From NCBI GenBank assembly GCA_964630825.1, contig CAZVZR010000007.1:1-63958 (forward strand): a DNA stretch of 63,958 nt. The letters run 5' to 3'. This document shows positions 31,571 to 53,649 of the stretch, piece after piece. This DNA is from an uncultured Planctomycetales bacterium (lineage in GTDB: Bacteria; Omnitrophota; Gorgyraeia; Zapsychrales; Zapsychraceae). A model generated the notes under the pieces. It did not search any database and was not told the origin of the DNA. It saw only the letters and a program-made list of their open reading frames with translations. Positions within the stretch are counted from its first letter, which is position 1. Every line of letters begins with the position of its first letter. A program made the translations under genes and the position numbers.

Positions 31571-32452
31571 ATGGCAATTAATTTAGAAAACAAAAAACAA
31601 ATCGCCACCATTTTTTCTGCCATAGCGTTAGGCGCTGTTGCTGTTTTTTTGACTGCAAATTATGTGCAAACGAGCATTCAAAGCCAGACTAAACAATTGG
31701 CACAGGAATATCAGAAAAGAAATGCGGGGGTATTTGATGAGCTTGAATTAGTTAAAAGAGGGTTAAAGCAATCCGAGGCTGCCCAGGCCGCTTTAGAAAA
31801 GCAAATTGAGCAAGTACGGAAACAGCCGGCACAGGTTATTGTGCAACAGGGCGGGCCAGCAACACAACCGGGTGAAAAAGGTATTGATACAACGGTATTT
31901 TCTGGTTTAACACCGCCCGGGAAAAGAGCGATGACGGTAGATATAGAATCATTGGATGCCGTGGGTGGACTGGTTAATCCAGGAGATTTTGTGGATGTTA
32001 TTGGGCATATGAAAATTCCCAAATCTGCAGACGCGGATGAAAAAGCAAAGCCGCAAGAGGTCACATCAGTCTTGTTTCAAAACGTTCAGGTTTTGGCGGT
32101 TGGAACAAATTTTAAACCGTCTGGGAATTCTAAAGTTTACGAGGATCAATATAAATCAAAAGACTTAAAGGTAACATTGGCTTTGGACCCGGAAGAAGCT
32201 TCGTTGCTCACATTTGTGAAGAAAAATGGGAATATACAGCTTATGTTAAGGCCACCCAATGAACTTCAAACCGAACGTATGCAGGTGGCCTCATGGGAAC
32301 TGTTGTCTGATTATGTTTTAGACAAGCAAGGGACAGAGCTTAAAGTTCCCACCGGGAAGGCAGATATTCATTCTGTTTCCGAGGGAGGATCTTCTTCTTC
32401 AGAGGTTAAGCCGTTTATTGAGATTTACCGCGGGGGAAAAGAACTTTTTTAA
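31571..32452 (+). CDS. cpaB: Flp pilus assembly protein CpaB/RcpC
   Basis: N-terminal TM, then RAMTVDIESLDAVGGLVNPGDFVDVIG...FQNVQVLAVG, typical of CpaB. Confidence 0.8.
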   Translation: MAINLENKKQIATIFSAIALGAVAVFLTANYVQTSIQSQTKQLAQEYQKRNAGVFDELELVKRGLKQSEAAQAALEKQIEQVRKQPAQVIVQQGGPATQPGEKGIDTTVFSGLTPPGKRAMTVDIESLDAVGGLVNPGDFVDVIGHMKIPKSADADEKAKPQEVTSVLFQNVQVLAVGTNFKPSGNSKVYEDQYKSKDLKVTLALDPEEASLLTFVKKNGNIQLMLRPPNELQTERMQVASWELLSDYVLDKQGTELKVPTGKADIHSVSEGGSSSSEVKPFIEIYRGGKELF

Positions 32453-32470
32453 TTTGGATTTTATCAAGGG

Positions 32471-34219
32471 ATGAGATTGCTAAAATTAGCCGTTCGACAA
32501 GGGGTTAAAAATTTAACGCACGCGTTTTTTGTGCTTTGCCTTTTCTTGATTTGTGCAAACAGTGTTTTTGCGCTGGATGCATCCTACCTGGAATCACCTT
32601 TCGTGAAAGCCAGTACGCCTTTAGATTCTGCCTTTACACAAGATGTTTATTTGGTCGTCGGTGAATTGGCCGAAATCAGTGTTCATTCTTTGACGCGTAT
32701 TTCGGTTACAGATCCGGGAATTGCCGATATCCTTGAAGCCAAAGAGGGAATTGTTAATCTTATTGCCAAACAACCCGGTCAGACCGCATTATTTATTTGG
32801 GACGAAAATGGAAAAGTTATCATGACAATCCACGTATCCAATCAGGATTTAGGAATGATAAAAGATCGTGTTAAAAATTTGCTTGTTGATGCAGGGATTA
32901 AAGAAGTAACGGTTCAACCCAATGAAGATGAAAGCAAGGTCGTTTTGTCGGGGGATTTGCCTGAATATAAGCGCGAAGCGTATGAGAGTATTAAAGGGAT
33001 ATTTAAGGATAATATTATTGATTTGGTTGGAAAAGAAGAACTTTTGGATTTGATTCAGGTGGATATGCAGGTAACGGAATTGAGTACAACGCTCAGTAAA
33101 AATCTTGGTATCAAATGGTCTCCGGCAAGCGCCACTGGGAGCACGGATGGTGATTTGGCTTTAAACTATAAGGAAGACCAAAATACTAAGTTTGACGGTT
33201 CGATTGGCGATTTTTTTAAAATAGGAGATTTTCGCCGGGACACTTTTTTGCAGGCAAAGGTGAATGCGCTTATTGAGGAAGGCAAGGCACGTATTCTCTC
33301 TAAGCCCAAAATAGTTGTCGCTAGCGGTCAAGAGGCAAAATTTCTCGTCGGCGGCGAAGTTCCCATAAGGACAACAACTACTTCAACGGGCGGGGCATCG
33401 ACCCAGGAAAATGTTCAATTTAAATCATTCGGCGTGGGGATGACGCTTACACCGACAATTCGCAAAGGAAAAATCAATGTAGTTTTAAACGTACAGATTA
33501 GCGATATTGATCGGGCCAATTCTGCTGGTAGCGACATCGCCTTTGAGACACGCACGGCTAGCACTAATTTAAATTTAGATGATGGGCAGTTGGTTGTTTT
33601 AGCTGGTTTGATTAAACACAATGAAAGTGAAACGCTTTCGCGGGTCCCTTTTTTAAGCAAGATTCCTATTGCTGGGATTTTATTTCGTAATCGTAAAACA
33701 CCCGCTCCTAATCAAGACCAGGAAGTGGTAATTTCTTTAGTCCCTACAATATTAAAATCAACGCGAGCGCCATCGGCGCAGGCGAAATATTCAGAAAACA
33801 AAGTTGTGGCCCACCATCCCACGCAAGGAGAAGCTAAAATAGCTTCTGAAATGCCGAGTGCCGGCGAAGATCAGGCACAATCCGTGCCAGCAGAGAAAAA
33901 TAAATCATACGTGGGAATCCCTAAGGACATGGAAGATTATGTGCGCCAAATTCAGCGACAAATTTCGCAATCAATAATTTATCCTCGCGAGGCCCAGGAA
34001 CAAGGGTTAGAGGGAACGGTCAGGTTGGGGATGTTAATACTGCGTGACGGGACACTCGCTTATGCTTCTGTTCAACAATCTTCAGGGTCTGCAATTATCG
34101 ATGATTATGCCCTAAATACCGCTAAAAATACAGCGCCGTATGCCGGTTTTCCGCCCACCTCAAAACTCGAAGAAATTAACGTCGTAGTTCCGATTGTTTA
34201 TAGTTTGAAAAGAAATTAA
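32471..34219 (+). CDS. cpaC: CpaC/RcpA-type secretin with C-terminal TonB_C-like domain
   Basis: Pilus N-domain (ISVTDPGIADILEAKEGIVNLIAKQPGQTALFIWDENG), secretin core (ILSKPKIVVASGQEAKFLVGGEVPI, VPFLSKIPIAGILFR), and a final ~90 aa reading YPREAQEQGLEGTVRLGMLILRDGTL... Confidence 0.85.
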   Translation: MRLLKLAVRQGVKNLTHAFFVLCLFLICANSVFALDASYLESPFVKASTPLDSAFTQDVYLVVGELAEISVHSLTRISVTDPGIADILEAKEGIVNLIAKQPGQTALFIWDENGKVIMTIHVSNQDLGMIKDRVKNLLVDAGIKEVTVQPNEDESKVVLSGDLPEYKREAYESIKGIFKDNIIDLVGKEELLDLIQVDMQVTELSTTLSKNLGIKWSPASATGSTDGDLALNYKEDQNTKFDGSIGDFFKIGDFRRDTFLQAKVNALIEEGKARILSKPKIVVASGQEAKFLVGGEVPIRTTTTSTGGASTQENVQFKSFGVGMTLTPTIRKGKINVVLNVQISDIDRANSAGSDIAFETRTASTNLNLDDGQLVVLAGLIKHNESETLSRVPFLSKIPIAGILFRNRKTPAPNQDQEVVISLVPTILKSTRAPSAQAKYSENKVVAHHPTQGEAKIASEMPSAGEDQAQSVPAEKNKSYVGIPKDMEDYVRQIQRQISQSIIYPREAQEQGLEGTVRLGMLILRDGTLAYASVQQSSGSAIIDDYALNTAKNTAPYAGFPPTSKLEEINVVVPIVYSLKRN

Positions 34220-34233
34220 TTCGAGTATATACT
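34205..34233 (+). promoter_or_regulatory. Candidate internal promoter
   Basis: TTGAAA, 17 nt, TATACT. Confidence 0.35.
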
Positions 34234-34309: not shown

Positions 34310-36484
34310 ATGAGCGCAAAAATTATTACAATTTTCAGCAATAAAGGGGGGGTCGGCAAAACATTTGTCGCGGTTAATTTAGCCACCGCGTTGGCTGTTG
34401 CCGGCCGTCGGACGCTGTTGGTGGATTTGGATTTTCAAGGCGGGCAGGATATGGCCCGCATGATTAACACAACTCCAGGGAATTCCATCGTCGATCTTTT
34501 ACCGCAACTGGAAGGGACTGACGACCCTGACATCATAAAGAGAAGCGCTGCAACACATACTTCCGGCTTAAGTTTCGTTCCCGCTGTTCGAAATACTAAA
34601 CAGGTAGGACATGTCACACCAGATAATATTAAACCGTTTTTCAAAAAAGCCAATACCGTTTATGATTACATCATTGTAGATGGTGGTCAGACTTTTAGCG
34701 AAACCCTTATTACCGTCCTGGATTTTTCGAATCTTATTTTATTAGTAGCGACACCGGATATTTTAGCCGTATATCAAATCAAATGGTGTCTGGAAGTTCT
34801 GCAAAGTTTACAATTTCCCGTAAAGATGGTCCGGTTGATTTTAAACCGTTCAGAAAGCCGCGGCTCGGTGGCTTGGCAGGAAGTCCGCTCTGCTTTGCAG
34901 TGTGAAATTTTTGGGCACATTCCTTCCGACGGGAAAACGGTGGGGATGGCGTTAAATCGTGGCGTGCCCTGTGTGATGGACAGCCCTAGCAGCAAGGTGG
35001 CGGAATCGTTTGAGAAAATGGCGAGCTTATTAACCAAAGAAGAAATTTATGTTGCCACCAAAGAAGTAGAGCGTGGCAGGACTACGCCGGGGAAGGGGGA
35101 AACTAGCGAATTTTGGGCGAAGCTCGGTGTAACGCCGTCAACCGCTGTGCCCGTAGCTGCTTATACAACTACAGAGGAAGACGAAATCGCGGCGTTAAAA
35201 AAGAGGATTCATGAAAGGCTGATCGAGCGTTTTAATTTAGATGGGATTACACCAGATTCTTTGAGTGACCCGGAGGCTATTGCCCGCGTCAAAAAGACTG
35301 CTGAAGACATCGTCGGTAATTTATTGTTGGAAGAAGGCGGTGGGCGCATTGCCGCTCATGAGGAAAGAATGCGATTGGCTAAAGATGTGGTTAATGAAGC
35401 GTTGGGTTTAGGCCCATTGGAAGATTTCCTGGCCGACCCGGAAGTGACTGATATTATGGTGAATAACCGCAGTCAGATTTATGTTGAAAAAAGCGGAAAG
35501 ATTATTCTAACTAATAAAAAATTTATATCTAATGAACGTGTGCGTGCGGTTATCGATCGCATTATTGCCCCGTTGGGCCGGCGTATTGATGAGTCAGTGC
35601 CGATGGTTGACGCCCGTCTTCCCGATGGATCGCGCATCAACGCCATCATTCCACCTTTGTCTTTGGGAGGCCCGATGATTACCATCCGTAAATTCGGGCA
35701 AGAGCGCTTGAGGATGGAAGACTTGCTGGAAAAATATAAAAGTTTAACAAGGCCAATCATTGATTTTATGCAGGCGTGTGTTTTAACCAGAAAAAATGTC
35801 ATTGTTTCCGGTGGGACAGGTTCAGGGAAAACAACGCTTCTTAATGTTTTATCGGAGTTTATCCCCGAGGGAGAACGCATTATAACTCTCGAAGATGCCG
35901 CGGAGCTTCAATTAAAAAAGACACATTGGGTTAGGTTGGAGTCTCGCCCTTCCAACGTGGAAGGCCGGGGCGCGGTTAGCATCCGCGATTTGTTTATAAA
36001 TTCGCTTCGTATGCGGCCTGATCGGATTCTCATCGGTGAATGCCGTGGCCCAGAGGTTCTGGACATGCTTCAAGCGATGAATACCGGGCACGACGGGTCC
36101 ATGACAACACTGCATGCCAATTCCACTCGGGACGTTTTAACGCGCCTTCAGTCAATGATTCTTTTAAGCGGGCTGGAACTCCCCCAGAGGGCAATCAATG
36201 AAATGATCTCTACCGCCATCGACGTCATTGTTCATGTCAATCGATTTTCCGATGGAACAAGAAAACTGACCGGGGTTTCGGAAATTGTCGGGTTAGACAA
36301 AGATTGGCTGTGCGAGTTAAAAGACGTTTTTATTTTTAAGCAGTCCGGTGTTGATGAAAATGGTAAAGTTTTAGGTGAGTACAAGTCAACAGGTTATGTC
36401 CCGAGCTGTTTTGAGGATTTTACGACACGCGGGATAAAACTCGACAAAGAAATATTCTCCACGCAGTATAAACATATAGTCTAG
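34310..36484 (+). CDS. Fused CpaE/TadZ-like (MinD/ParA-type) and CpaF/TadA secretion ATPase
   Basis: N-terminal IITIFSNKGGVGKTFVAVNLA. C-terminal CpaF core with Walker A GGTGSGKTTLLN, Walker B ILIGECRG and His box GHDGSMTTLHAN. Confidence 0.85.
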   Translation: MSAKIITIFSNKGGVGKTFVAVNLATALAVAGRRTLLVDLDFQGGQDMARMINTTPGNSIVDLLPQLEGTDDPDIIKRSAATHTSGLSFVPAVRNTKQVGHVTPDNIKPFFKKANTVYDYIIVDGGQTFSETLITVLDFSNLILLVATPDILAVYQIKWCLEVLQSLQFPVKMVRLILNRSESRGSVAWQEVRSALQCEIFGHIPSDGKTVGMALNRGVPCVMDSPSSKVAESFEKMASLLTKEEIYVATKEVERGRTTPGKGETSEFWAKLGVTPSTAVPVAAYTTTEEDEIAALKKRIHERLIERFNLDGITPDSLSDPEAIARVKKTAEDIVGNLLLEEGGGRIAAHEERMRLAKDVVNEALGLGPLEDFLADPEVTDIMVNNRSQIYVEKSGKIILTNKKFISNERVRAVIDRIIAPLGRRIDESVPMVDARLPDGSRINAIIPPLSLGGPMITIRKFGQERLRMEDLLEKYKSLTRPIIDFMQACVLTRKNVIVSGGTGSGKTTLLNVLSEFIPEGERIITLEDAAELQLKKTHWVRLESRPSNVEGRGAVSIRDLFINSLRMRPDRILIGECRGPEVLDMLQAMNTGHDGSMTTLHANSTRDVLTRLQSMILLSGLELPQRAINEMISTAIDVIVHVNRFSDGTRKLTGVSEIVGLDKDWLCELKDVFIFKQSGVDENGKVLGEYKSTGYVPSCFEDFTTRGIKLDKEIFSTQYKHIV

Positions 36485-36492: not shown

Positions 36493-36834
36493 TTGCGAAT
36501 TTTTAACGCTACAAAGAAAACCCTTGTTGCCGATAATGCTCGGCTGGCCGATACCTTTCTTTCCCGTCTTATCGGCTTGATTAACCGGGCACACCTTTCT
36601 TTGGGCGAAGCGCTGATTATTACTCGTTGCCAGTCTATCCATATGTTTTTTATGCGCTTTGCTATAGATGCGATATTTATCGATAAAGAAAATAAAGTGG
36701 TCGGTTTGGTATCCAATATTCAACCCTGGCAGCTAAGCCCTATTTTTTTTAGGGCGACACGTGTTTTAGAATGCCCTCCCCAAACAATATCCCTTACAAA
36801 AACCACTTTAAGCGATTTAATTAGCATAGAATAA
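36493..36834 (+). CDS. DUF192 (UPF0127) family protein
   Basis: LADTFLSRLIGL...ALIITRCQSIHMFFMRFAIDAIFIDKENKVV. TTG start. Confidence 0.65.
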   Translation: MRIFNATKKTLVADNARLADTFLSRLIGLINRAHLSLGEALIITRCQSIHMFFMRFAIDAIFIDKENKVVGLVSNIQPWQLSPIFFRATRVLECPPQTISLTKTTLSDLISIE

Positions 36835-36987: not shown

Positions 36988-38856
36988 ATGGGTGTTGTTT
37001 ATAAACTTAAAGAAGAGGTCATTGACTTTATTCTTGAACAAAAGAAGTACGATCCCGCCATAAGTGTCCGCCGGCTTGCCAGCGTAGCGGCCGCAAAATT
37101 TCAAATCGAAATCTCCAAATCCTCAATAAATACTATCCTTAAAAACGCAAATTTAAGCAGTATGGTTGGCCGGCGCTCCGCGGCGTCTAAAGCTCCAAAG
37201 AAATTTACCATCCCCACAGAAAAGAAAAAACAGCTTTCCGCACAAGTTTTTCAATTGAGCGGACAAGAAGAGCAAGCAGTAAAAGAGCTCCCGGTTGTTC
37301 CAGAAAAACCTTCGTTGGTCCAACCCGCGAAAAAGGAAGAAGTGCCACCAGCACCGGCGTTGCCAGTAATCAACAATTCTGAAATTGTCCCAATCATTCC
37401 GGCAGCAACAAAACCCATTGTTACTCAAGAAGTTGTAGAAAAAGAAAATTTAACATCACCAAGTGTTTTTAAGCAAAGCTTTATCGACGAAATAGTATAC
37501 AGGCGTTTTGAGCATCGCGCGCAATATGGCCAGGCCTATAAAGGCATGGGGTGCGTTTTTTTGAAGGCAGCACAGTGGGAGGTGTTTTCTTTTCGGCGTT
37601 TTGATGAACTGCTTAGGCGTTATAGCCAAGGAGCTTTGCCGGAAGATTTTTCGGAACAGTGTTCACATTTGGTTTATCTAAATATTTTGGCGCAGCAAAA
37701 TTGTAATAATATAAAAGAATACCGCGGTTATGGCTTGCCGGTACTCAATGAATCAACAGGCTCAGTACCTGATGAGGCGGCTTTTCAGGCCCTCATCGAA
37801 ATGCCGTTTCGGATTCCTTCTTTGGTTTCTGATTATCTTGCCCTTAAAGCGGAAAACCGTTTGTGGGTTTCATATTTCAAATTGTTACTCGAAGACGGAA
37901 CGTCTTTGATTCTCGACGGTTGTTTATTATCTTTCTGGCCGGACGAGCGTGCCATTCCCAATTTTCTTTCTTGGCCGGTGGATAAAGCCACGACCTTGCT
38001 TTCACGGGATTTGGTCAGCAATGCGGAAGGGCTCAAGCTTTTCTTTACCGGTCAAGAGGCAAGCTTCTCAACGGAGTTTTTTAAAGCGGTAGGTTTTTTA
38101 GAGAACCTCAAAAATTTTCATGTTAAAGAAATAATTGGTTGTGATGCTCAGGGGCAAAAAATTATTGCGTTGACAACTATCCCCCGCCTGAAAAGAAATT
38201 ATATTGTCGGGATTTGGCCGCGGCAGAAAGAATTTGCCGAATTAACCAAATCATTGCGGTTTGCGGCGAAAAAACCGTTTTATGAAAAAAGCGTGGATAA
38301 AGCGGTTTATTATACGGAAACCCGTACGGATTTCTTCGTTTCACGTATCGATGAAACGCTGATCGGCAAGAGAATTATTACTTTGTGGTTTGAGGAAACA
38401 CAAGAACCAGCAGTTTCCATTTTAACGAATTGTGAAACCGTGGCCGCCGAAAAGATCACTTCTTTATTTTTAAGGCGTTGGCCGAATTGGGAAAGCAAGG
38501 GAGTGCTTTTTAATCGGGATGAGGGGGCAAGCCAGATTTCCGATGACAAAAAAGACAGAGACACTTCCCTTAATAATCTTTGGGCAGTTATCAGTGATTA
38601 TGCGCAAGGGCTGGAGAAACACATTTGCGCGAACTATCTGCCGCTTAATATGGATAAAGAAAGGCAGCGTCAAACCTTGAGGGCGATTTATCAATTAGAA
38701 GGCGGTGTTAAAGCAGGCAAAAGAGATTTTGCTGTTTTGTTAAAGACGGAAGAAGATTTTGCTTATAAAGAAACACTTGCCTGTATGCAAAAGGCGGTAA
38801 ATGAGAGTTGTGTTTTAGATGAGCGCGGCCGGCAGCTCATTATTGAAATTTGTTAA
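36988..38856 (+). CDS. Hypothetical protein with N-terminal HTH-like segment and Pro-rich linker
   Basis: 622 aa. ISVRRLASVAAAKFQIEISKSSINTILKNANL, then a PEKPSLVQPAKKEEVPPAPALP linker, then an unrecognised ~450-aa domain. SD AGGATGAG. Confidence 0.6.
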   Translation: MGVVYKLKEEVIDFILEQKKYDPAISVRRLASVAAAKFQIEISKSSINTILKNANLSSMVGRRSAASKAPKKFTIPTEKKKQLSAQVFQLSGQEEQAVKELPVVPEKPSLVQPAKKEEVPPAPALPVINNSEIVPIIPAATKPIVTQEVVEKENLTSPSVFKQSFIDEIVYRRFEHRAQYGQAYKGMGCVFLKAAQWEVFSFRRFDELLRRYSQGALPEDFSEQCSHLVYLNILAQQNCNNIKEYRGYGLPVLNESTGSVPDEAAFQALIEMPFRIPSLVSDYLALKAENRLWVSYFKLLLEDGTSLILDGCLLSFWPDERAIPNFLSWPVDKATTLLSRDLVSNAEGLKLFFTGQEASFSTEFFKAVGFLENLKNFHVKEIIGCDAQGQKIIALTTIPRLKRNYIVGIWPRQKEFAELTKSLRFAAKKPFYEKSVDKAVYYTETRTDFFVSRIDETLIGKRIITLWFEETQEPAVSILTNCETVAAEKITSLFLRRWPNWESKGVLFNRDEGASQISDDKKDRDTSLNNLWAVISDYAQGLEKHICANYLPLNMDKERQRQTLRAIYQLEGGVKAGKRDFAVLLKTEEDFAYKETLACMQKAVNESCVLDERGRQLIIEIC

Positions 38857-38884: not shown

Positions 38885-38994
38885 AGTTGGACGAAAAGGT
38901 GCGTTAGCCGCAAGGCTAATTACACAAAGCAACGGTTCCTTTTTCGAAGGAAGGCCGGGCTGCCGAAACAACTAGCTCAAAATTTGGACCATTG
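38885..38994 (+). ncRNA. Structured 5' leader, possibly a GEMM-I-like (c-di-GMP class I) riboswitch aptamer
   Basis: GNRA hairpin TTAGCC-GCAA-GGCTAA, then ACACAAAGCAACGG, a second hairpin, and GGCCGGGCTGCCGAAA. Compare my recollection of the GEMM-I consensus, ACGCAAAGC..CCGG ... GCCGGGUUACCGAAA. By eye only. Confidence 0.3.
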
Positions 38995-39029: not shown

Positions 39030-39077
39030 TTGTTTTGATAAAATATTAAGATAATGATTGGCAAGGAGGGGCAAGGC

Positions 39078-43880: not shown

Positions 43881-43915
43881 AAGTTTTTATCGGATATTAT
43901 TAAAGGATGAGGCAT

Positions 43916-45621: not shown

Positions 45622-45888
45622 ATGCCACGGTACAAAAAAAATAGCGGGCAGACAACCATTGAATTTGCTTTCAGCATGATTATCATTATGTTGATGATTT
45701 ATGGAATGGTAATGATTTTTTATTGGACAGGTTCGGACTTAATAGGAAGAAGCAAAGGCCACGACGCACAGCTCATCACAGCCATTAATCCAAATTATTC
45801 TTCTGGGAGCCCAGAAGATGGGCCTTTAAAGCAGATTGCCCCATATTTTTATTACCCACAGAAAATGAATGCAGTGTTCGGCCAATAA
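45622..45888 (+). CDS. TadE-like minor pseudopilin (88 aa)
   Basis: MPRYKKNSG|QTTIEFAFSMIIIMLMIYGMVMIF. Confidence 0.65.
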   Translation: MPRYKKNSGQTTIEFAFSMIIIMLMIYGMVMIFYWTGSDLIGRSKGHDAQLITAINPNYSSGSPEDGPLKQIAPYFYYPQKMNAVFGQ

Positions 45889-45901: not shown

Positions 45902-48900
45902 ATGTTAATTTTGCTAAAAAAAATTATCCGCCACAGTTTCCGTCAAAAATTCAAGAATTCTTCCAAAGGACAAGTAGCGGTTATCCTTATATTGATCACT
46001 GCCGTTGCATTAATCTTTTACGCGGTGAGCCTCAATATGGGCCGCGTTGCTATTGTGAAAACTCAAACCCAAATCGCCTCAGCTTCGGGAGCTAGTGAGT
46101 TGGCCTCCGAGATGGCAAGCTATGGGCAAAGCCTTTTTATGGAAGTCCTCGGGGGGAAGCGCAAAGTTTGTGATAGCAGTTCTGTTTTGGGCGCTATTGT
46201 AGCCGTTGTTCTCGCAATACTTATTATTATTATTCTTGTTGTCTTAGCAGTTTTTACTTGGGGATCGAGTTTGATAGGCATACCATATGTTATATTGGTG
46301 GCGGGGTCTGTGCTTGGGTTGGCTGCAGCAACGGCTGGGCTTATTATGGCAACGATTGCTCTTTATGAACAGGCATTCATAATACAGCCGAGCATAACAG
46401 ATCTATGGAATAAATCTTTGGCCGCAGTATTGTCCAGAGAAGATATGTATTTAGAGCAAGGGATATCAGCAGGTTGGGGGAGAATTGTAACCGACAACAA
46501 ACAAGTCCCAGACATTCTTGATTTTAATGCCGATGGAGTTTATGGTTTTGATGGCCAAGGTAAGCCGAAGGATTGGGTATCACGCCCGGCAATTTATTAT
46601 GACATGAGGGTTAGGGGTGCCCAAAACAAGCCTGTTCCGGAAATAGACGCTTTTGTTAAAGCCCTCGGGGAATTTTTATACAAAGATCCTGATGGAACGG
46701 GAAACACGTGGGGATTGATTGATCCGTTGCCTTGTTGCGATGCCTCTAATCCTAAGTGCAACCCTAATCATCCTTGTTGCCAAAGCCCGCCGCCGTCTGA
46801 GTGCAACCCTTGCTGTGTTCCGGAATTTGTTAATGATCCGACGGATCAAGGTGGAACTGGCCAAGTCCGTATTAGGCCGGAATGTTGTGACAATAACACG
46901 CCACCGAATGCTTGCGGCGTAGCAACCACGTCCTGTGGTACAGCCGCGAGCTGCGGTTCATTAAGTCCTTACGGGAATGCTTATCCGTATGTTTATAACT
47001 CGATCTTTCAAAATCAAGAAAACAACAACACGACTGACCCGAATTTCTTTTTATCCTTTTTGGAGCAATTGGGGCATGACGATGAAAACGATAAGTATAC
47101 TATTCCGGAACCTGCTTCCCAAGCAAACCCTTCACTGTATGACCCTACAGCATTACAGCAAAGTATTGATCCGGAAGGGCCTCTGCGGTGGCGATTTACC
47201 GACGCAACAGGATTTTATCATGATCCCGTTTGGCCTTACCCTGAGCCACGGCCGCCGGGGGATAAACAGTCAGGGATATTTCCATTTTTATATAAAATTC
47301 AAGATTGGGGGATGGACCTCAATCAATTGAATAAATTACAAACAGTATCGTGGTCAGGAACCCCTCTTAAAGACGGAATGCATTGTTATTGGTATGATTG
47401 GGCTTGGGATCAGGCTTATGATACTTCCGGAAACGACTGCACCAGTTTGTTGACGGGAAAGGAAATGCCCCAGGAACTTCGTCGACAGATTGACTGGCCG
47501 GCAACGAACGGAATATTCAATGCTAATCCTATGCAGGCATTAATTTTGCCCCAAGACCCCAATAAATTGATTTTTGATAAAACCTGGTGGGTTGACGGAA
47601 CACGAGACAATGTTTGCACGAGCGGTGTTTGTAATCCACCATTAGCGGCTGATAAAGTTATAGTTCCCCAGGGGATTATTGCTGGTGAGAATGAATGCGC
47701 TCAAAACGGGCTTGAACAAACAGATCCGAATACAGGGGCAAAGCTGGGTTTTTGGAAACGCGGCGATGTTCAGTTTTGTTCAACACAATGGCCTTATGAC
47801 GCGCATTGTACACAGCATCTTTGGGACCCTGTAAATAATACCAGTGCGTGTGTTGTTGATCAGGGGCTGCCAACTCAACAATATGTAGATTGTAATTGTA
47901 TGGACCCAGCGGTAGATAAAACTTTGTTCAGGGATGATGTTTTAGATACAATGGTCCATGGGTTTAAAGACTTTATTTCGCTCGCGGAATCGGTTCTTGC
48001 CATGAAATCAATGGAACGGAAAAATTCATTGAGTTATTGGGGGCCGCAGATGTATGAATGGGTTAATCCTACGGATGGTTTTATCGCAATCATTAGGGCA
48101 CGCATTCAAGAAATATTAGTTAGGCTCAAAACTAATTGGCGCGATCTTTCTTTTCAAGGGACGACTTGCGAGGAAGTCTGGTGCGTGCCGCCGGCAACAG
48201 ATCTCAACAATGGGAGGGATTGCCAAAGCGCTTTAAACATTCCTTTAAGGGAACGAGCCACTTTTGATATTAATGGTAATACTATTCGCGGGGATATGGC
48301 AGATATTATTGCCTGCTTGGAGTGGAATTCGGGTTCTGTGAATCAGAATAACCTTAATACTTATGCGGATGGGACAACCGCCAGAGACAATGCTTTGAAG
48401 TTTGAAAAATGCCGCGAATCTTGTTCATGGGATACATGCCGCGCTCCGCGGCTACCGCGGTCGTTGGTTCCTCCGGCGGATTTTAGCCGTATTGCTTTTG
48501 AACCGGCGGACCCGAACCCGGCGGTAGCAACGCTTTTGGAAACGGATATCAAAAAGATGTTGAATTGTTACGACAGTATTCCGATAGGCAATAACACAAA
48601 TTGTACTACCGGGCCAGGGAGTCAATTGGAAAAATGCCAGGCCATGCCCATGACAAAGTTTAATCAGTCGTGTCAAAAATATTTTACCGATGATCCCGCG
48701 ACTTTTAATGCGGATGCCATTGATTTTGATTGCGGGCACCGGTATTTTGATTTTGTTCCGGATTCGTTAAGGCGCGGCCCGCCCGGGGATCCGGCTGCTG
48801 TTTGCTACGGAGCAACGTATTTTCCCACTTATTGGCCGGCGGATATTGATTTTTCAGTCCCCGGAACATGGACATATGCTGACATCGGGAATGCGGCAAG

Positions 48901-50677
48901 CGCTGCTTCCGCGGCCGGCGAAACAAATGATCTTAATACTATTCAAGCTTGCCAGCTTTCTTGCAATGGCTCCCCGACGGTTTGCGATAACACCAAATGC
49001 CAGATAATGCCGCGGTATCAAAATATTTTTGCATCAGGAACTTCCGTTGACCCATTAGCAGGGATTTCTTACAGGCAAGAGATTGAAAATGCTTATAACT
49101 GGTATATCGATCCAGCTCATTTTGGCCCCCTACGGGCGGGTGATCCTGACCCTACCAAGATAAAGGCGTGCCTAACTGATGCTCTGGATCCTCTTAGGCC
49201 ATGTCTTAATTTCCCCACTACTTGCCGGGTAATGCCGCAATATTTAAATCAATGGGCGGCGGGAAACCAATGGTATGACGATGTGCAGGCGGCTCTTACT
49301 TGGCTCCAGGCACAAACACCAAGCCGCGGGCCGGGTGACCCGGATTATGACGCGATAGTGGCATGTGACACAGCATGTGCTTATACTGAAAATATCCCCA
49401 ATGTTCCTTTGGGGAATCCGGGAAATCCAGGCGGCGATCCGGCTCCCGGGGCGACGACAACCTGCCGGGCTATGCCGTGGTTTGATTCACAATGCGTGGC
49501 GGATTTGTATTTTACCGAAAACCCCAATCAAGATAACATTCCTCCAGGGGCTCCGGGGGACGGTATTGGATTTGAGGTTCAGGATTGCGGAAGCGTGGTT
49601 CCATGGGGACCGGGCAATGATTGGTACGATAGAATTGTAGGTACATTGCCTATGGGAGCAAGTCCTCCGGGCCAAATAGATAATGGTGCGTTGATGCTGG
49701 CGAACAAATGGTGTGATTTGCGTATGGGCGACGCAGATCCGACTACAACTCAGAATAACGGTTGGTTATTGAACGCAGAAAAAAGTTGGCATGAAGCGGA
49801 GAATCAAGTGCCTAAATTTAAGTTACGTGCGGAGTTTCTACAGCAACGTTTGGATGAATTAAACAATATTATTTCTGTTTTCGAAAAAGCTTTACCGGAA
49901 TTTGATGCGCTATTAAATGCAGCAAAAGATTTAATTGATTGTTATCAGAATTCGTCAACATGTTTAAATGAAGAATCCGGGCTTCCCTATACTTTAATTT
50001 ACGGCTGGCAGAGCGACCCGCCACAAACCACTAGAAAGTCGGCACCAGGTGAAGGATATTGGCATATAGTTAAGGTGGAGGCACGGTCACCTAAAAGATG
50101 TGACGGGGCTTGTGGAGTCCCCGGTACTTGTTCAAGTGGGGGGGCTACTTGTCCCGACCCAGCATTCCCAACAGTAAAAACCAGTGTTAGTGGTTTTATG
50201 GACACAACACGTTGTTATGAACTTGAAAACACTGATGGATTAGTTAAGTTTCGGGTGACGCGTTGGGATGAAGACAGAGATTCGAATTTGATAACATTCC
50301 CCGGTGGGATTCCGATTTGGCAATTTCACTTGCCTGAACACCCTGCCCGTGGGAAAGGGACAATTGGAAATACAACAGCAGCGGGTTTGTATACGGCTTG
50401 TAAGGATCAGTTTTATCAACCTCCATCAGCAATAAGCATTCCTGCACAGTATAAAGATGTTTTTGGTAGAGCGTTTCTGTTAAGTGAACGAATTGACGGC
50501 AGCGACGGTGTTGATCCTTCTATCGGGCGTACCGTAAACATTCCCTGTTGGCAAAAAGCGGTTGATTTGGTTTCACAAGGTGTTATGACCGAGGTTTGTG
50601 CACAATATTATTATCATGAAAATGGTCTAGCAAAGGGGATGAGTTTTAAATTTGTCCCTTGTCCGGATAAATTCTAA
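45902..50677 (+). CDS. Giant TadG-like protein (1591 aa) with Cys/Pro/Trp-rich extracellular region
   Basis: N-terminus SKGQVAVILILITAVALIFYAVSLNMGRVAIVKTQTQIASASGASELA resembles the TadE/G-like N-terminal motif. Three further hydrophobic helices follow, then a Cys-dense region (PLPCCDASNPKCNPNHPCCQSPPPSECNPCCVPEF). Confidence 0.7.
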   Translation: MLILLKKIIRHSFRQKFKNSSKGQVAVILILITAVALIFYAVSLNMGRVAIVKTQTQIASASGASELASEMASYGQSLFMEVLGGKRKVCDSSSVLGAIVAVVLAILIIIILVVLAVFTWGSSLIGIPYVILVAGSVLGLAAATAGLIMATIALYEQAFIIQPSITDLWNKSLAAVLSREDMYLEQGISAGWGRIVTDNKQVPDILDFNADGVYGFDGQGKPKDWVSRPAIYYDMRVRGAQNKPVPEIDAFVKALGEFLYKDPDGTGNTWGLIDPLPCCDASNPKCNPNHPCCQSPPPSECNPCCVPEFVNDPTDQGGTGQVRIRPECCDNNTPPNACGVATTSCGTAASCGSLSPYGNAYPYVYNSIFQNQENNNTTDPNFFLSFLEQLGHDDENDKYTIPEPASQANPSLYDPTALQQSIDPEGPLRWRFTDATGFYHDPVWPYPEPRPPGDKQSGIFPFLYKIQDWGMDLNQLNKLQTVSWSGTPLKDGMHCYWYDWAWDQAYDTSGNDCTSLLTGKEMPQELRRQIDWPATNGIFNANPMQALILPQDPNKLIFDKTWWVDGTRDNVCTSGVCNPPLAADKVIVPQGIIAGENECAQNGLEQTDPNTGAKLGFWKRGDVQFCSTQWPYDAHCTQHLWDPVNNTSACVVDQGLPTQQYVDCNCMDPAVDKTLFRDDVLDTMVHGFKDFISLAESVLAMKSMERKNSLSYWGPQMYEWVNPTDGFIAIIRARIQEILVRLKTNWRDLSFQGTTCEEVWCVPPATDLNNGRDCQSALNIPLRERATFDINGNTIRGDMADIIACLEWNSGSVNQNNLNTYADGTTARDNALKFEKCRESCSWDTCRAPRLPRSLVPPADFSRIAFEPADPNPAVATLLETDIKKMLNCYDSIPIGNNTNCTTGPGSQLEKCQAMPMTKFNQSCQKYFTDDPATFNADAIDFDCGHRYFDFVPDSLRRGPPGDPAAVCYGATYFPTYWPADIDFSVPGTWTYADIGNAASAASAAGETNDLNTIQACQLSCNGSPTVCDNTKCQIMPRYQNIFASGTSVDPLAGISYRQEIENAYNWYIDPAHFGPLRAGDPDPTKIKACLTDALDPLRPCLNFPTTCRVMPQYLNQWAAGNQWYDDVQAALTWLQAQTPSRGPGDPDYDAIVACDTACAYTENIPNVPLGNPGNPGGDPAPGATTTCRAMPWFDSQCVADLYFTENPNQDNIPPGAPGDGIGFEVQDCGSVVPWGPGNDWYDRIVGTLPMGASPPGQIDNGALMLANKWCDLRMGDADPTTTQNNGWLLNAEKSWHEAENQVPKFKLRAEFLQQRLDELNNIISVFEKALPEFDALLNAAKDLIDCYQNSSTCLNEESGLPYTLIYGWQSDPPQTTRKSAPGEGYWHIVKVEARSPKRCDGACGVPGTCSSGGATCPDPAFPTVKTSVSGFMDTTRCYELENTDGLVKFRVTRWDEDRDSNLITFPGGIPIWQFHLPEHPARGKGTIGNTTAAGLYTACKDQFYQPPSAISIPAQYKDVFGRAFLLSERIDGSDGVDPSIGRTVNIPCWQKAVDLVSQGVMTEVCAQYYYHENGLAKGMSFKFVPCPDKF

Positions 50678-50758: not shown

Positions 50759-51091
50759 ATGTTTAAGCTAATCAGAAAACATAGAGCCCAATCAACTTTA
50801 GAGTACGTAGTTTTGCTTATTTTTGTTATGGGTGCTTTTCTTGTTTTTCAGAAATATATTGTCCGTGGGTTTTCTGGCCGCTGGAAATCCGTCGGGGATT
50901 CTTGGGGTAACGGGCGTTTATACGATCCCAAGAAAACAGTGGAATGCGCTAATGATATGTTTAATGATCGCGAAAATGTTTGGTATAACGTGCCTTGTTT
51001 TGAAGCCGCATGTGTCGACTCGTGTTTAAAGGTGTATGTTCCGGCAACTTGTACCAGCTGTATTGACAGCTGCCAAGCAGGCTGTAATTAG
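50759..51091 (+). CDS. Flp-like prepilin with Cys-rich C-terminus (110 aa)
   Basis: MFKLIRKHRA|QSTLEYVVLLIFVMGAFLVF, YIVRGFSGRWKS, then 10 Cys in the last ~60 residues (CFEAACVDSCLKVYVPATCTSCIDSCQAGCN). Confidence 0.65.
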   Translation: MFKLIRKHRAQSTLEYVVLLIFVMGAFLVFQKYIVRGFSGRWKSVGDSWGNGRLYDPKKTVECANDMFNDRENVWYNVPCFEAACVDSCLKVYVPATCTSCIDSCQAGCN

Positions 51092-51148: not shown

Positions 51149-52006
51149 ATGTTGGTTCTAATTTTCTTCTTAGTTTTTACCACGGCAGGGATGTGTGCCT
51201 ACATGATCATTCCTGCTGTTACCAACCAAGTCCTCGTTGTCAATGAAAAAAGGCAGCAGCGTTTATCCAACCGCATGGAGCAGGTTATTACCCGTCAGGA
51301 AGCAAAAAAAATAAGCCGGTTTCTTATTTTTGCTCCGTTTGGTTTTGGCGCTTTGTTTGCCACTTTTTTCGATCCGCAATTTCGTTTGGCCGGATTTTTC
51401 ATGGGTTTGGTGGCCGGGTATGTTTTCCCCAGTATTTATATCAAACTTCTTACCGGGCAGACACAGCGTAAATTTCATGATCAATTGGTCGATTCATTGA
51501 TGATTATGTCGAGTTCCTTTCGCGGCGGATTAAGTTTGGTCCAGGCCATGGAGGCGGTAACCGATGAAATGCCTGACCCGATCCGGCGGGAATTTGAGGT
51601 TGTTTTAGGTGAAAATAAAATGGGAGTTTCCCTCGAAGAAGCATTATATCATCTTTATAACCGTATGCCGTCGGCGGCGATGCAGCAGATGATCACGGCG
51701 ATTTTATTGGCTCGCGAAACTGGGGGAAACTTGCCGGCAATTTTTACCCGTATCGTCGGAAATATTCGGGAAACTAAAAAAATTCAACAGAACCTTGCGA
51801 CCCTTACTATTCAGGGAAAGATTCAAGGGTTTATTATGGCGCTTTTGCCGGTAGCATTCGCCATGATCGTTTATTCGTCAAACCGCCGGCTTTTTGATAA
51901 CATGCTTGCTTCTGATTTTGGCCGCGGGTTGCTTATATTTTGTGTGATTTGGGAGATTATCGGGGCGTTTTTGATTATAAAGATAAGTACTTTTAAGGAT
52001 TTTTAA
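51149..52006 (+). CDS. tadB: Tad/type II secretion F-family inner-membrane protein TadB
   Basis: T2SSF domain (SFRGGLSLVQAMEAVTDEMPDPIRREFEVVLGENKMGVSLEEAL) flanked by TM helices. Confidence 0.85.
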   Translation: MLVLIFFLVFTTAGMCAYMIIPAVTNQVLVVNEKRQQRLSNRMEQVITRQEAKKISRFLIFAPFGFGALFATFFDPQFRLAGFFMGLVAGYVFPSIYIKLLTGQTQRKFHDQLVDSLMIMSSSFRGGLSLVQAMEAVTDEMPDPIRREFEVVLGENKMGVSLEEALYHLYNRMPSAAMQQMITAILLARETGGNLPAIFTRIVGNIRETKKIQQNLATLTIQGKIQGFIMALLPVAFAMIVYSSNRRLFDNMLASDFGRGLLIFCVIWEIIGAFLIIKISTFKDF

Positions 52007-52064: not shown

Positions 52065-52137
52065 GAATTAACCCCCCAAACGGTTTGTTTTGCCTTTTTA
52101 TGAAATTGGCAAAACAGTGGGGGCAACGGAGACACAA

Positions 52138-53034
52138 ATGGACTTTTTTCTTTTTATAGCTTTTTTCACCGCCTACTGCTGCGGTTTTGCTTTTGTTGTC
52201 GGTTTCATAGGCTTAGAGTGGGAAGAGCGGGCAACGTTAAGTGCGTTTGGCTTAACCGGTGAGGAGTCGGGGAAGAAAAAGAAAGGCGGGCTTTTCGGGG
52301 TTTTACGCAAATTCGCGATCATTAACAGGCCTTTATGCCCGGAAGGTTTTCGCCGCGGCATCACCAAACGTTTGATGATGGCCCGTTGGAACATTTCCGT
52401 CGAGGAATTTATATTTTTTAAGCAGATTTGTATGTTGGTTATTTTAATAGTTCTTTTCCCGGCTACGCCGCCGGATATGCGCGGATTGTGGCTGATTTTG
52501 GGCTTTTCTTTGGGGTACCTGGTCCCGGACTTTATCCTCAACGGAAAAATCAAGAAAGTTAAATATATCATAGTTAAAGAACTTCCCGATGCCATTGATT
52601 TATTGGGGCTTTGCGTGAACGCGGGCTTGGACTTTATGTTGGCGCTGAAATGGGTTGTGGAAAAATCCCAGCCCTCAGTTATGGTCGATGAATTAAATAC
52701 CGTTTTGCAGGAAATTAATGTTGGGAAAACTAGGCGCGATGCCATCCGTGATTTGGCCGGGCGCTACGAGCTGCCGGATTTGTCGACTTTTTCGCGTACG
52801 TTGATTCAAGCCGACAAGATGGGGACGTCGGTCACCGAAGCATTAAATATTCTTTCCGAAGATATGCGCCTGGCTCGTTACCGTCGAGGGGAACAGCTGG
52901 CATTAAAAGCGCCTTTAAAAATGCTTATTCCTCTGTTGGTTTTTATTTTTCCTGTCGTTTTTGTCCTGGTCGCCGGTCCTGTCATGATCGATTTCATCCA
53001 GAATAATCCTTTTAAGTCGCTCGGTGGCGGTTAA
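52138..53034 (+). CDS. tadC: Tad/type II secretion F-family inner-membrane protein TadC
   Basis: T2SSF domain (DAIDLLGLCVNAGLDFMLALKWV...GKTRRDAIRDLAGRYELPDLSTFSRTLIQADKMGTSVTEAL). Start set at MDFFLFIAFF. Confidence 0.85.
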   Translation: MDFFLFIAFFTAYCCGFAFVVGFIGLEWEERATLSAFGLTGEESGKKKKGGLFGVLRKFAIINRPLCPEGFRRGITKRLMMARWNISVEEFIFFKQICMLVILIVLFPATPPDMRGLWLILGFSLGYLVPDFILNGKIKKVKYIIVKELPDAIDLLGLCVNAGLDFMLALKWVVEKSQPSVMVDELNTVLQEINVGKTRRDAIRDLAGRYELPDLSTFSRTLIQADKMGTSVTEALNILSEDMRLARYRRGEQLALKAPLKMLIPLLVFIFPVVFVLVAGPVMIDFIQNNPFKSLGGG

Positions 53035-53049
53035 GGAAACTAATCTTAA

Positions 53050-53649
53050 ATGGCTTTTGATAACGCCGTCAGTAGCATTGAATCAATCACTGCCACTATT
53101 GAAAATGACAGCGACACTTTTCATTGGTTTAGTTATGTTATTTGCCAGCCAGCTGTAATTTCCCGTTTGTCGGCACAAGCCGACATCAAGATTGCCTATC
53201 AATTATTTAAAAAAACAATGCTTCAGCAAAGATTAACAGCAGTAACTTTGCTGATTTTTTTGTTGGTTATTGTTTGTTTGCAAAAATATAAATATTTTTG
53301 GTTGGCTTTCTTGTTTATCTATCCGCTAATTAAGCTAAATCAGGCCAAGAAAGGCTGCGTTGTTGAAATTAGCCGGAGGCTGCTTTTGGAGGATTTTGCG
53401 GAATCGGTTTTGTGTCAAAAAACGCTTTACCAGATCGCTGAGGAATACAGCCGTCGGCTGGAGATCCCTTCTTTGGTAGACAGTATTTATTTTAGGGATA
53501 GATTCCTGCGCCGGAGCATTTTGGTGGGCTTGGTGGGGGGAGTTTTGATTTTTACATTTAGCCCGTTGCAGGCTCTTTTAATTGTGGGAGGAAGTTTTTT
53601 TATTGTATGTGTTTTTCTTAATTCACACTTATTTTATCGTTTTATATAG
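53050..53649 (+). CDS. Hypothetical membrane protein (last gene of the Tad-like cluster)
   Basis: 199 aa with 3-4 hydrophobic helices. No peptidase A24 motifs seen. Confidence 0.5.
   Translation: MAFDNAVSSIESITATIENDSDTFHWFSYVICQPAVISRLSAQADIKIAYQLFKKTMLQQRLTAVTLLIFLLVIVCLQKYKYFWLAFLFIYPLIKLNQAKKGCVVEISRRLLLEDFAESVLCQKTLYQIAEEYSRRLEIPSLVDSIYFRDRFLRRSILVGLVGGVLIFTFSPLQALLIVGGSFFIVCVFLNSHLFYRFI

Follow-up and report, generated by a model that had tools for sequence, protein, structure and literature searches.

A Tad-type filament locus of divergent Omnitrophota form beside a giant surface-protein gene

The stretch of DNA analyzed here (the window) is an entire contig of 63,958 bases, CAZVZR010000007.1. 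It carries a cluster of 22 kb whose genes encode a Tad-type surface-filament machine. The cluster has the divergent form that, in Omnitrophota, lies beside giant surface-protein genes. All genes between 30.6 and 53.0 kb are on the forward strand. The cluster genes lie where an initial annotation had placed them, and Pfam and PDB sequence searches support the core components. We think it likely that the locus encodes a Tad-type (type IVc, Epd-like) filament machine in its Omnitrophota form, one that would contact host or prey cells together with the neighboring giant protein, under the control of cyclic di-GMP (c-di-GMP).

Core genes and their conservation

A scan with one genome per GTDB species gave 29 loci, from 28 Omnitrophota metagenome-assembled genomes (MAGs) and Limnobaculum. 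Loci from other genomes are labeled L001-L034, and L028, the canonical Tad locus of Limnobaculum, was used as a control. Loci whose fused ATPase (see below) is 63-72% identical to that of the window form the close clade, and those at 52-58% are the distant Omnitrophota. Judged from its protein relatives, the contig's host is an Omnitrophota bacterium. The fused ATPase has more than 115 full-length clusters of ~720 amino acids (aa) at 66-73% identity, and all named sources are Candidatus Omnitrophota or Omnitrophica. Six MAGs with an Omnitrophota-type locus (L002, L004, L008, L013, L016 and L027) are titled 'uncultured Planctomycetales/Planctomycetia bacterium'. Such titles on Omnitrophota-type MAGs are probably a submission labeling artifact.

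The genes outside the pilin block are as follows (HTH, helix-turn-helix; ORF, open reading frame).

30589..31533 (+), PpiC/SurA-like lipoprotein peptidyl-prolyl isomerase (PPIase), gene 1 of the locus
31571..32452 (+), CpaB/RcpC periplasmic component with an N-terminal transmembrane anchor
32471..34219 (+), outer-membrane secretin (RcpA/CpaC type) with a C-terminal TonB_C domain
34310..36484 (+), ParA/MinD-like domain (TadZ/CpaE position) fused to a CpaF/TadA motor ATPase, a single 724-aa ORF
36493..36834 (+), DUF192 protein without a signal peptide
36988..38856 (+), conserved 622-aa protein with an N-terminal HTH, a Pro-rich linker and a 460-aa globular domain
51149..52006 (+), TadB platform protein
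52090..53034 (+), TadC platform protein

Two of these proteins are fusions. In the 724-aa ORF, Pfam finds AAA_31/CbiA/ParA at residues 4-240 and T2SSE at residues 365-641 (E 3e-59). Against PDB sequences, residues 330-704 match Caulobacter CpaF (1.5e-115) and residues 3-243 match MinD/ParA (~1e-16). The ParA-like domain has the canonical KGGVGKT loop and no receiver-like domain. The ORF had been read as CpaE and CpaF in one polypeptide. A ParA/MinD-like domain and CpaF are indeed joined in one ORF, but the TadZ structure was not among the PDB matches at 1e-5. The secretin ORF matches Secretin (8e-39), T2SS-T3SS_pil_N (1e-10) and TonB_C (5e-14) in Pfam. Among PDB sequences it matches Pseudomonas aeruginosa RcpA (8odn, 6e-23) and TonB C-terminal domains (~1e-6; 7e-7). 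Its TonB_C tail is conserved, since the tblastn alignments of relatives reach residue ~580. Both fusions occur in 27 of 27 related Omnitrophota loci and not in the Limnobaculum control, which matches only the CpaF part of the ATPase and has no TonB_C tail.

Profile searches upheld the remaining core assignments of the initial annotation as well. CpaB matches Pfam RcpC (1.1e-25) and is syntenic in relatives. The DUF192 protein matches its family at 8.7e-15, and its gene follows the ATPase gene in nearly all related loci. A PDB sequence search with it gave no match, and a literature search on DUF192 returned nothing bearing on pili. The platform is split, with one T2SSF domain each in TadB (9e-17; 58-61% identity to orthologues) and TadC (8e-15). 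Alignments of TadC orthologues start at residues 17-28, and the true start is probably ~17 codons downstream of the one given. The PpiC-like gene lies outside the coordinates first assigned to the cluster. It matches Pfam Rotamase_2/3 and SurA_N, has the lipobox AVSGC, and is directly upstream of CpaB in every related locus that extends that far. A Rotamase_2 PPIase has been counted among the conserved genes of the locus by West-Roberts 2023 (bioRxiv 10.1101/2023.11.21.568195). No TPR lipoprotein (TadD) or RcpB was found by Pfam in the locus, and the PpiC/SurA-like lipoprotein occupies the first position.

Gene order is conserved from one end of the locus to the other. In the close clade it runs PpiC lipoprotein, CpaB, secretin-TonB_C, ParA-CpaF, DUF192, the ~620-aa HTH protein and then the pilin block. 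The block consists of the Flp with a 42-aa mature part, a 68-73-aa Flp-like protein, five proteins of ~100-120 aa, one of 430-520 aa and a TadE-like protein of ~80 aa. These are followed by a Cys-rich protein of 1,100-1,600 aa, a Cys-rich pilin of ~130 aa, TadB and TadC. Synteny from PpiC to TadC and on to the giant gene is one-to-one in L001, L004-L007, L010/L030, L011 and L031, and seventeen genes hold their order across species with just 25-70% protein identity. In the distant Omnitrophota, PpiC through HTH are kept, and the number of pilins and the position of TadB and TadC vary. Many Omnitrophota assemblies, independent of one another, show this gene order, so the locus is not a product of chance.

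This type of locus has been published, and that of the window belongs to the published class. Seymour 2023 described a 'complete Tad complex' in V. archaeovorus LiM, located at 12-30 kb of its genome, and surveyed TadBC and RcpA across the phylum. They placed Omnitrophota TadB and TadC with bacterial homologues and grouped Velamenicoccia RcpA with RcpA of the predatory Stigmatella and Vulgatibacter (PMC10066038). West-Roberts 2023 described a conserved 'T2SS-like' locus that precedes giant genes and comprises more than ten genes, among them homologues of gspD, gspE, gspF and rcpC, the Rotamase_2 isomerase and small class-III-signal genes (bioRxiv 10.1101/2023.11.21.568195). The association of pilus and giant genes is repeated in a 2026 Omnitrophota preprint. 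The window's locus is like the published one in phylum, components, conserved order, proximity to the origin and the giant C39-domain gene downstream. It differs in two insertions, one of the riboswitch and two fiber genes and the other of a 199-aa gene and a radical-SAM gene. Measured against the refuting condition set by the initial annotation, the architecture has already been described for Omnitrophota, although the published descriptions are coarse and give no characterization. The ParA-CpaF fusion, TonB_C tail, absent peptidase, Gln at +1, HTH protein and riboswitch are not mentioned in Seymour 2023, West-Roberts 2023 or the 2026 preprint. What is new here is the c-di-GMP riboswitch in the locus, the archaeal-style pilin signals and the lineage-wide lack of a peptidase gene at the locus.

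Pilin-like proteins and their signals

The following proteins carry pilin-type N-termini (the arrow marks the cleavage site).

41711..41905 (+), Flp-type prepilin (64 aa, 42-aa mature part), start TTG 41711 or ATG 41741, motif KG↓QQILEY
41935..42156 (+), second short Flp-like prepilin (73 aa, 57-aa mature part)
42199..42564 (+), pilin-like protein, 110-aa mature part, KKA↓QNTAEY
42636..42971 (+), pilin-like protein (111 aa, 99-aa mature part), KKG↓QSTLEY
43168..43557 (+), pilin-like protein (129 aa, 119-aa mature part), KKA↓QMSVGEY
43563..43880 (+), pilin-like protein, 98-aa mature part, TG↓QTYLEY
43907..44233 (+), pilin-like protein (108 aa, 96-aa mature part), RKG↓QTTIEY
44311..45591 (+), Cys-rich pilin-like protein (426 aa, 413-aa mature part), NKA↓QTAIEL
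45622..45888 (+), TadE-like pseudopilin (88 aa), SG↓QTTIEF
45902..50677 (+), Cys-rich membrane protein (1591 aa) at the TadG position, N-terminus KG↓QVAVILIL
50759..51091 (+), Cys-rich pilin-like protein (110 aa, 8 Cys), HRA↓QSTLEY

A six-frame motif scan with inspection bore out the count of eleven proteins with a class-III-type N-terminus, that is, a basic leader, Gly or Ala, Gln and a hydrophobic helix. Ten of them are counted here as prepilin-like, and the eleventh is the 1591-aa protein. Nine of the eleven carry [G/A]↓Q-x-x-x-E-[Y/F/L], with Glu at +5. The exceptions are the 129-aa protein, with Glu at +6, and the 1591-aa protein, which has no Glu. None of the window's pilins has the G↓F/M N-methyl motif, and all have Gln at +1.

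Profile support for the small class-III-type proteins is weak but consistent. Class_IIIsignal (PF04021) scores 28.0 bits in the 73-aa protein, above its cut-off of 23.7, and is just sub-threshold in the 108-aa protein (22.5 bits) and sub-threshold in the 111-aa protein (18.4 bits). Flp_Fap matches the 64-aa Flp weakly (0.025), as it does the L030 and L031 orthologues, and a PDB sequence search with this Flp gave no match. Its mature part, 41-42 aa, is highly conserved in 8 relatives, and it is the candidate major subunit. The 426-aa protein has orthologues of 246-506 aa with 8-20 Cys and gave no match in Pfam, NCBIfam or PDB sequence searches; it is a candidate tip or minor pilin. The 110-aa Cys-rich protein has no Pfam or NCBIfam match, and its orthologues follow the TadG-position gene in L030 and L031 (48-49% identity). 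In relatives, every pilin paralogue has a separate orthologue, recognizable by a sequence signature of its own (for the protein encoded at 42199..42564, 1:1 orthologues at 50-71% identity). The paralogues are thus old and specialized rather than recent duplicates.

The Gln at +1 is a trait of the lineage. It is present in 151 of 157 class-III motifs of Omnitrophota loci (76 G↓Q, 68 A↓Q and 7 S↓Q), whereas the control Tad locus L028 has G↓V and G↓A at the cleavage site. With Ser/Thr at +3, Glu at +5 and Leu/Ile at +9, the Omnitrophota signals have the signature Q-x-S-x-E-x-x-x-L. This is the signature of PF04021 (Class_IIIsignal), which we take to be a family of archaeal EppA substrates. A derivation of Tad pili from an archaeal Epd-like system has been proposed (PMC6668835), and the near-universal Gln at +1 fits such an origin.

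Additional proteins of this kind occur upstream of the locus in some relatives. Between the nitrilase-family and malate dehydrogenase genes, L006 (4923-5141) and L002 (4882-5040) have an extra orphan Flp-like gene, and L007 (4844-6253) has a gene for a 469-aa class-III-signal protein with 51 Cys. In the window just 30 bp separate these two genes.

The 1591-aa protein had been called TadG-like on the basis of its position and N-terminal hydrophobic motif only. We do not uphold this name, because six orthologues lack Pfam Tad/TadG and because three transmembrane helices argue against a pilin. The helices are predicted at residues 21-81, 95-119 and 136-176, and with three of them the protein is unlikely to enter the filament. 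It has 57 homologues besides its own entry, and those that are named are all Omnitrophota 'hypothetical protein'. Conservation is limited to the first ~870 residues (~55%), which include many invariant Cys. There was no Pfam match at E<=0.1 and no NCBIfam match, and Foldseek found no PDB fold match for a model of the N-terminal part. The public gene call is 1,546 aa and starts 45 codons past the first ATG. Because that start lies downstream, the call would delete the KG↓QVAVILIL signal-anchor, which is common to all orthologues.

Regulatory elements, the HTH protein and inserted genes

The control elements of the window, and the riboswitch regions of relatives, are as follows.

38888..38967 (+), c-di-GMP-I riboswitch aptamer, Rfam RF01051
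38994..39029 (+), terminator-like hairpin and T-run, the putative riboswitch expression platform
41377..41404 (+), near-consensus sigma-70 promoter of the pilin block, TTGACA-16-TATGTTATACT
41545..41577 (+), hairpin and T-run in the ~300-nucleotide (nt) AT-rich leader before the first flp gene
41625-41646 (+), second hairpin and T-run element in this leader
42988..43036 (+), strong intrinsic terminator with a 19-bp stem, between the fourth and fifth pilin genes
L013 7137-7274, riboswitch region
L015 14644-14782, riboswitch region
L017 14305-14433, riboswitch region
L018 9498-9643, riboswitch region
L025 12837-12925, riboswitch region

The aptamer, not noticed in the initial annotation, begins 32 nt past the stop codon of the HTH gene. 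It scores 41.8 bits (gathering score 35; E 8e-5) over model positions 1-87, and the sister model RF03167 matches too. In the minimum-energy fold, the 3' helix strand of the aptamer pairs with the 5' arm of the hairpin at 38994-39029 and gives an alternative structure. RF01051 is also above its gathering score at the same syntenic position in the five distant loci listed (37.2-39.9 bits). There the aptamer is followed by a T-run and, within ~50-140 nt, by a ribosome-binding site and a Flp-type prepilin gene. An alignment of 7 aptamer sequences has compensatory changes in 11 of 20 pairs, and both helices are kept. Because the aptamer recurs at the same position before Flp genes, control of the pilin block by c-di-GMP may be a recurrent trait of this type of locus. 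In the window, to judge from gene order, the riboswitch would govern the inserted fiber genes.

The pilin block has signals of its own. The promoter is conserved in 9 of 10 close loci, and the close clade and the window share TTGACA-16/18-TATGnTATACT; equivalents of promoter and leader are present in L001, L004, L005, L006, L008, L010, L011 and L031. A hairpin and T-run follow the promoter by ~130-170 nt in the leader, and 8 of the 9 loci with the promoter have them at an equivalent distance. The flp leader of the close clade showed no further conserved RNA structure. Since conservation is limited to the terminator hairpin, the leader could act as an attenuator or be a small RNA of its own. 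A 70-aa ORF that overlaps the leader (41442-41654) is probably spurious. The intrinsic terminator after the fourth pilin gene has equivalents (a hairpin of -25 to -31 kcal/mol and a T-run) in 6 of 7 close relatives with an examinable spacer. It would set four highly expressed pilin genes apart from the rest, which would be expressed by read-through.

The 622-aa protein had been listed as an HTH orphan. It is instead a conserved component of the locus, with its gene at this position in about 20 related loci. A search gave 35 homologues in addition to its own entry, almost all unnamed; the two that are named are from Omnitrophica. The AlphaFold2 model has a mean predicted local distance difference test (pLDDT) score of 81, with values above 90 for most of residues 160-622. 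The best Foldseek match is the Tn5 transposase, at a non-significant E of 0.036, and there are weak matches to IS630/Tc3-type HTH profiles. Since it has only one near-invariant acidic residue, the protein is probably not an active DDE enzyme. We infer that it may be a domesticated transposase-like DNA-binding protein.

The genes that interrupt the locus, and the giant gene beyond it, are listed below.

39054..39560 (+), secreted 168-aa protein, probable start 39078, with an N-terminal module common to the next gene
39602..41332 (+), secreted 576-aa repeat (fiber) protein
53050..53649 (+), 199-aa membrane protein, no Pfam or NCBIfam match
53629-55566 (-), convergent gene for a 645-aa B12-binding radical-SAM protein, overlapping the end of the 199-aa gene by 21 bases
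56507..63958 (+), N-terminal 2,484 aa of the giant ORF, open to the contig end; Peptidase_C39 27 bits, cut-off 22

In relatives the first flp gene starts within 0.4-0.6 kb after the HTH gene. Neither fiber gene has a counterpart in any related locus, and neither does the radical-SAM gene. The 168-aa protein matches nothing in Pfam or NCBIfam, and no homologue turned up in the related loci. A search with the 576-aa protein gave 896 distant homologues, of which none is below 1e-30; it is a member of a diffuse family of secreted proteins with repeats. Nearly all members of the family are unnamed; one is named as a YadA-like head domain protein. L034 (1-7599) has five tandem fiber paralogues of ~500 aa, 3 of 5 with a Peptidase_S74 (tail-fiber intramolecular chaperone) domain. 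The 199-aa and radical-SAM genes form a 3.4-kb insertion between TadC and the giant gene that is not at that place in relatives. The only homologue of the 199-aa protein among related loci is upstream and on the opposite strand, in L005, and the protein is probably not a Tad component. The radical-SAM protein has a multi-helix hydrophobic N-terminal region of ~280 residues. By synteny, the 168-aa, 576-aa, 199-aa and radical-SAM genes are insertions in this lineage, and we do not uphold the proposal that the fiber genes and the membrane orphan are embedded parts of the system, as they are not conserved.

Two neighbors had also been connected with the machine, a PilZ-PilT gene upstream and the giant ORF downstream. 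Both are present. Adjacency of the giant ORF is conserved: in the loci that reach past TadC (L030 and L031) a giant ORF comes next, 0.7-1.1 kb on, and has a C39 domain at its N-terminus. The L031 ORF, an orthologue of the one in the window, is 25,892 aa, and the giant N-termini of L030 and L031 are 37-43% identical to that of the window. The PilZ-PilT gene (PilZ+T2SSE, 25334-26704) was considered as a system part and set aside; it is syntenic only in L002 and is thus treated as a neighbor.

The window also contains the replication origin region, with dnaA (17000-18421) ~13 kb away from the Tad-type locus. dnaN, the DciA gene, gyrB and gyrA are on the dnaA side, and parAB and yidC are opposite. 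The sign of the GC skew flips near 17 kb, between yidC/parAB and dnaA, and the GC content drops to 0.33 (14000-18500). One 6S RNA gene and four tRNA genes are also in the window, with RNA positions at 2760-2913 (-), 9183-9606 (-) and 25083-25156 (+).

Interpretation and rival explanations

The machine could work as follows. A prepilin peptidase encoded elsewhere in the genome would cut after Gly or Ala, and the new N-terminal Gln may cyclize, as in archaeal Epd pilins. Motor and platform would lift pilins from the inner membrane and polymerize them, and the filament would leave by way of the secretin. The bulk subunits, with the 42-aa Flp as the core, would come from the first four pilin genes, which stretch from the conserved promoter to the strong terminator. 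The products of the six post-terminator genes would be scarce minor pilins, needed to start assembly and to build the tip; they are the three proteins of ~100 aa, the Cys-rich proteins of 110 and 426 aa and the TadE-like protein of 88 aa. The Cys-rich protein of 1591 aa, with its three helices, would stay anchored in the inner membrane, and the conserved HTH protein would be a transposase-derived DNA-binding regulator. The riboswitch, which sits directly before the first Flp gene in distant Omnitrophota, would gate the inserted pair of fiber adhesins in the window. Machine and giant protein together would contact a host or prey cell, under c-di-GMP control.

Several observations weigh against this interpretation. 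The filament is predicted from genes, the link to the giant protein is one of conserved adjacency, and the split between major and minor pilins is read from the layout of promoter and terminator. The 88-aa protein matches Pfam TadE at E 1.4e-3 but with 19.2 bits against a cut-off of 22.9; among 20 orthologue and paralogue N-termini, 4 match TadE at E<=0.05 and none reaches the cut-off. The TadG profile (Pfam Tad, PF13400) found nothing at E<=0.05 in the first 200 residues of the 1591-aa protein and five orthologues. Folding alone does not separate an ON from an OFF direction for the riboswitch. The aptamer was not found in nine close-clade relatives (seven by Rfam, nine by a core-motif search), nor was a divergent one found in the HTH-flp spacer of the closest relative. 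As the close-clade relatives lack it, the window's aptamer may have come with the fiber cassette.

A final point of this kind is the prepilin peptidase. Peptidase_A24 had no Pfam match on any annotated ORF of the window, and the GxGD[..]K motif was not found in its six frames. The second catalytic motif of A24 peptidases, searched as the regular expression G-x-G-D-hydrophobic-K/R, identifies a hydrophobic ORF of 139 aa in the Tad locus of Limnobaculum and was found in 0 of 31 Omnitrophota loci (~0.5 Mb), a count that covers the loci and not whole genomes. Since the motif finds the control ORF and nothing in the 31 loci, we take the absence to be a property of the lineage's locus and not an oversight. 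The profiles and the six-frame motif search thus bear out the original report of a cluster with no A24 gene. We considered three other candidates and rejected each. The 199-aa membrane protein was considered as a prepilin peptidase of divergent sequence, but it matches no family in Pfam or NCBIfam, lacks a GxGD motif and is not syntenic. An unannotated 254-aa ORF at 579-1343 (-) is soluble and of low complexity. C39 peptidases have specificity for double glycine, and the pilins' cleavage site is Lys/Arg-Gly↓Gln; on this reasoning from known specificity the C39 domain of the giant protein is not the pilin processor. Nothing on tadV, pilD or prepilin was found in the supplementary tables of Seymour 2023, and West-Roberts 2023 and the 2026 Omnitrophota preprint are silent on peptidases and riboswitches. 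A peptidase encoded away from the Tad locus is an accepted situation (PMC6668835; PMC8460266). The TXSScan Tad model first had tadV as a 'loner' exchangeable with pilD (PMC6668835), and the Kil system of Myxococcus can do without its peptidase, with PilD as the suspected substitute (PMC8460266).

The missing peptidase gene could also mean that the locus is a decaying or silent remnant, and there is no A24 gene in the window or related loci to speak against this. We find it hardly credible, however, because all ORFs are intact, the seventeen order-conserved genes have diverged to 25-70% protein identity with their regulatory signals conserved, and the locus of V. archaeovorus is reported to be expressed, in co-culture with Methanosaeta (PMC10066038); separately encoded peptidases, shared with type IVa pili, are moreover accepted (PMC6668835; PMC8460266). 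It is unlikely, though less so, that the locus is mainly an exporter resembling type II secretion, in which a short pseudopilus pushes pieces of the giant protein or other effectors through the secretin and no long adhesive pilus is made. The ten pilin-like genes, most with mature parts of ~100 aa, are more pseudopilin- than Flp-like, the giant gene's adjacency is conserved, and the Tad-like Kil system of M. xanthus may also deliver toxins (PMC8460266). But the motor matches CpaF far above GspE (~1e-7), the platform is split between TadB and TadC, CpaB/RcpC is present, no GspC, GspL or GspM domain was found by Pfam in the window, and the pilins have Gln at +1 instead of an N-methyl motif. The exporter reading also has to accommodate a highly conserved 42-aa Flp behind a strong promoter and giant proteins that carry their own SecA-like domains (West-Roberts, bioRxiv 10.1101/2023.11.21.568195).

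The pilin signals raise the question of whether the system came from bacterial Tad at all. Instead, an archaeal Epd-type pilus might have been acquired separately and more recently, with the secretin recruited later. Like archaeal Epd (EppA-dependent) pili, the window's system has short Gln+1 pilins with Q-x-[S/T]-x-E-x-x-x-L, the pattern of the archaeal Class_IIIsignal PF04021. It also has a platform split in two and a secondary P-loop ATPase beside the motor (PMC6668835), and attacks on archaea by Omnitrophota, V. archaeovorus among them, would offer occasions for transfer (PMC10066038). Unlike the archaeal systems, it belongs to a diderm host, has a secretin and CpaB and shows no EppA-like peptidase. 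The motor scores 390 bits to Caulobacter CpaF and only ~120-128 to archaeal or archaeal-type FlaI and 2oap. CpaB/RcpC, an RcpA-like secretin with the Tad-specific T2SS-T3SS_pil_N domain and the TadE-like match are features of bacterial Tad systems, and Omnitrophota TadB and TadC fall with bacterial homologues in Seymour 2023 (PMC10066038). We therefore regard this origin as very improbable, and we return to a Tad-type machine of Omnitrophota form as the favored reading.

A bolder version of that reading, which we consider rather unlikely, is that the locus represents a distinct branch of type IV filaments. Such a branch would have Epd-like Gln+1 (possibly pyroglutamate) pilins in a diderm, a four-pilin heteropolymer, a motor permanently fused to a ParA-like positioning ATPase, a peptidase from outside the system (possibly not a classical TadV) and c-di-GMP gating at the RNA level. 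It would form one unit with the giant 'archaeovorin'-type protein and display it or deliver it to prey. If true, this would be a pilus/secretion hybrid for predation.

Comparison with characterized systems agrees with the initial view that this is not a textbook Tad architecture, given the fused motor, the TonB_C secretin, the ten pilin-like genes and a locus without a peptidase gene. The canonical Tad/Cpa systems of Aggregatibacter actinomycetemcomitans, Caulobacter crescentus and Pseudomonas aeruginosa share with it the CpaF/TadA motor, TadB, TadC, RcpA/CpaC and RcpC/CpaB, a short Flp with G↓xxxxEY and TadE-like pseudopilins (the window's TadE match being below the cut-off). In contrast to these systems, its motor includes the ParA/MinD-like partner, which has no receiver-like N-domain of the TadZ kind, its secretin has a TonB_C tail, and it has ten pilin-like genes compared with about 3-4, with Gln at +1 in place of Ala or Val. 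The locus lacks TadV/CpaA, TadD and RcpB, its TadG-position protein is unrelated by profile, and it adds PPIase, DUF192 and HTH genes.

The Kil system of Myxococcus xanthus (Seef et al. 2021, PMC8460266) is likened to the window's locus by description and not by sequence orthology. It too is Tad-derived, has many associated genes of unknown function and belongs to a predator, which uses it at sites of prey contact. Its motor has an extra N-terminal domain, its pilins are partly redundant, and its peptidase is dispensable or possibly supplied by PilD (PMC8460266). Kil differs in being encoded in two clusters, with an ATPase fused to FHA, three pilins and a short secretin.

For the riboswitch there are parallels outside Tad systems. 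A c-di-GMP-II riboswitch lies upstream of pilA1 in Clostridioides difficile, and the Vc1 riboswitch lies upstream of gbpA in Vibrio cholerae. Likewise, in Omnitrophota a c-di-GMP aptamer with a terminator platform directly precedes pilin genes (distant loci) or adhesin-like fiber genes (the window). The window's aptamer, compared with that of pilA1, is of class I and is part of a Tad-type locus of an uncultivated phylum. No paper that ties a c-di-GMP riboswitch to Flp/Tad genes was found in the literature searched.

A role in cell contact has already been proposed for Omnitrophota (PMC10066038; bioRxiv 10.1101/2023.11.21.568195). The initial view of the locus as a surface-attachment or cell-contact apparatus keeps its contact role, which the conserved link to the giant ORF fits, but the machine is typical of its lineage and is not a one-off 'super-locus'. 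Omnitrophota are abundant, uncultivated and ultra-small, and are suspected predators or parasites; the locus together with the giant gene is the best candidate for their contact apparatus. The gene-by-gene dissection presented here makes a coarse published annotation testable with respect to bulk and tip pilins, the location of the peptidase, riboswitch control and the roles of the HTH, DUF192 and Cys-rich proteins. The near-universality of Gln at +1 is relevant to the proposal that Tad pili have an archaeal (Epd-like) origin, and the most directly testable additions are the syntenic c-di-GMP-I riboswitch and the archaeal-type pilin signals.

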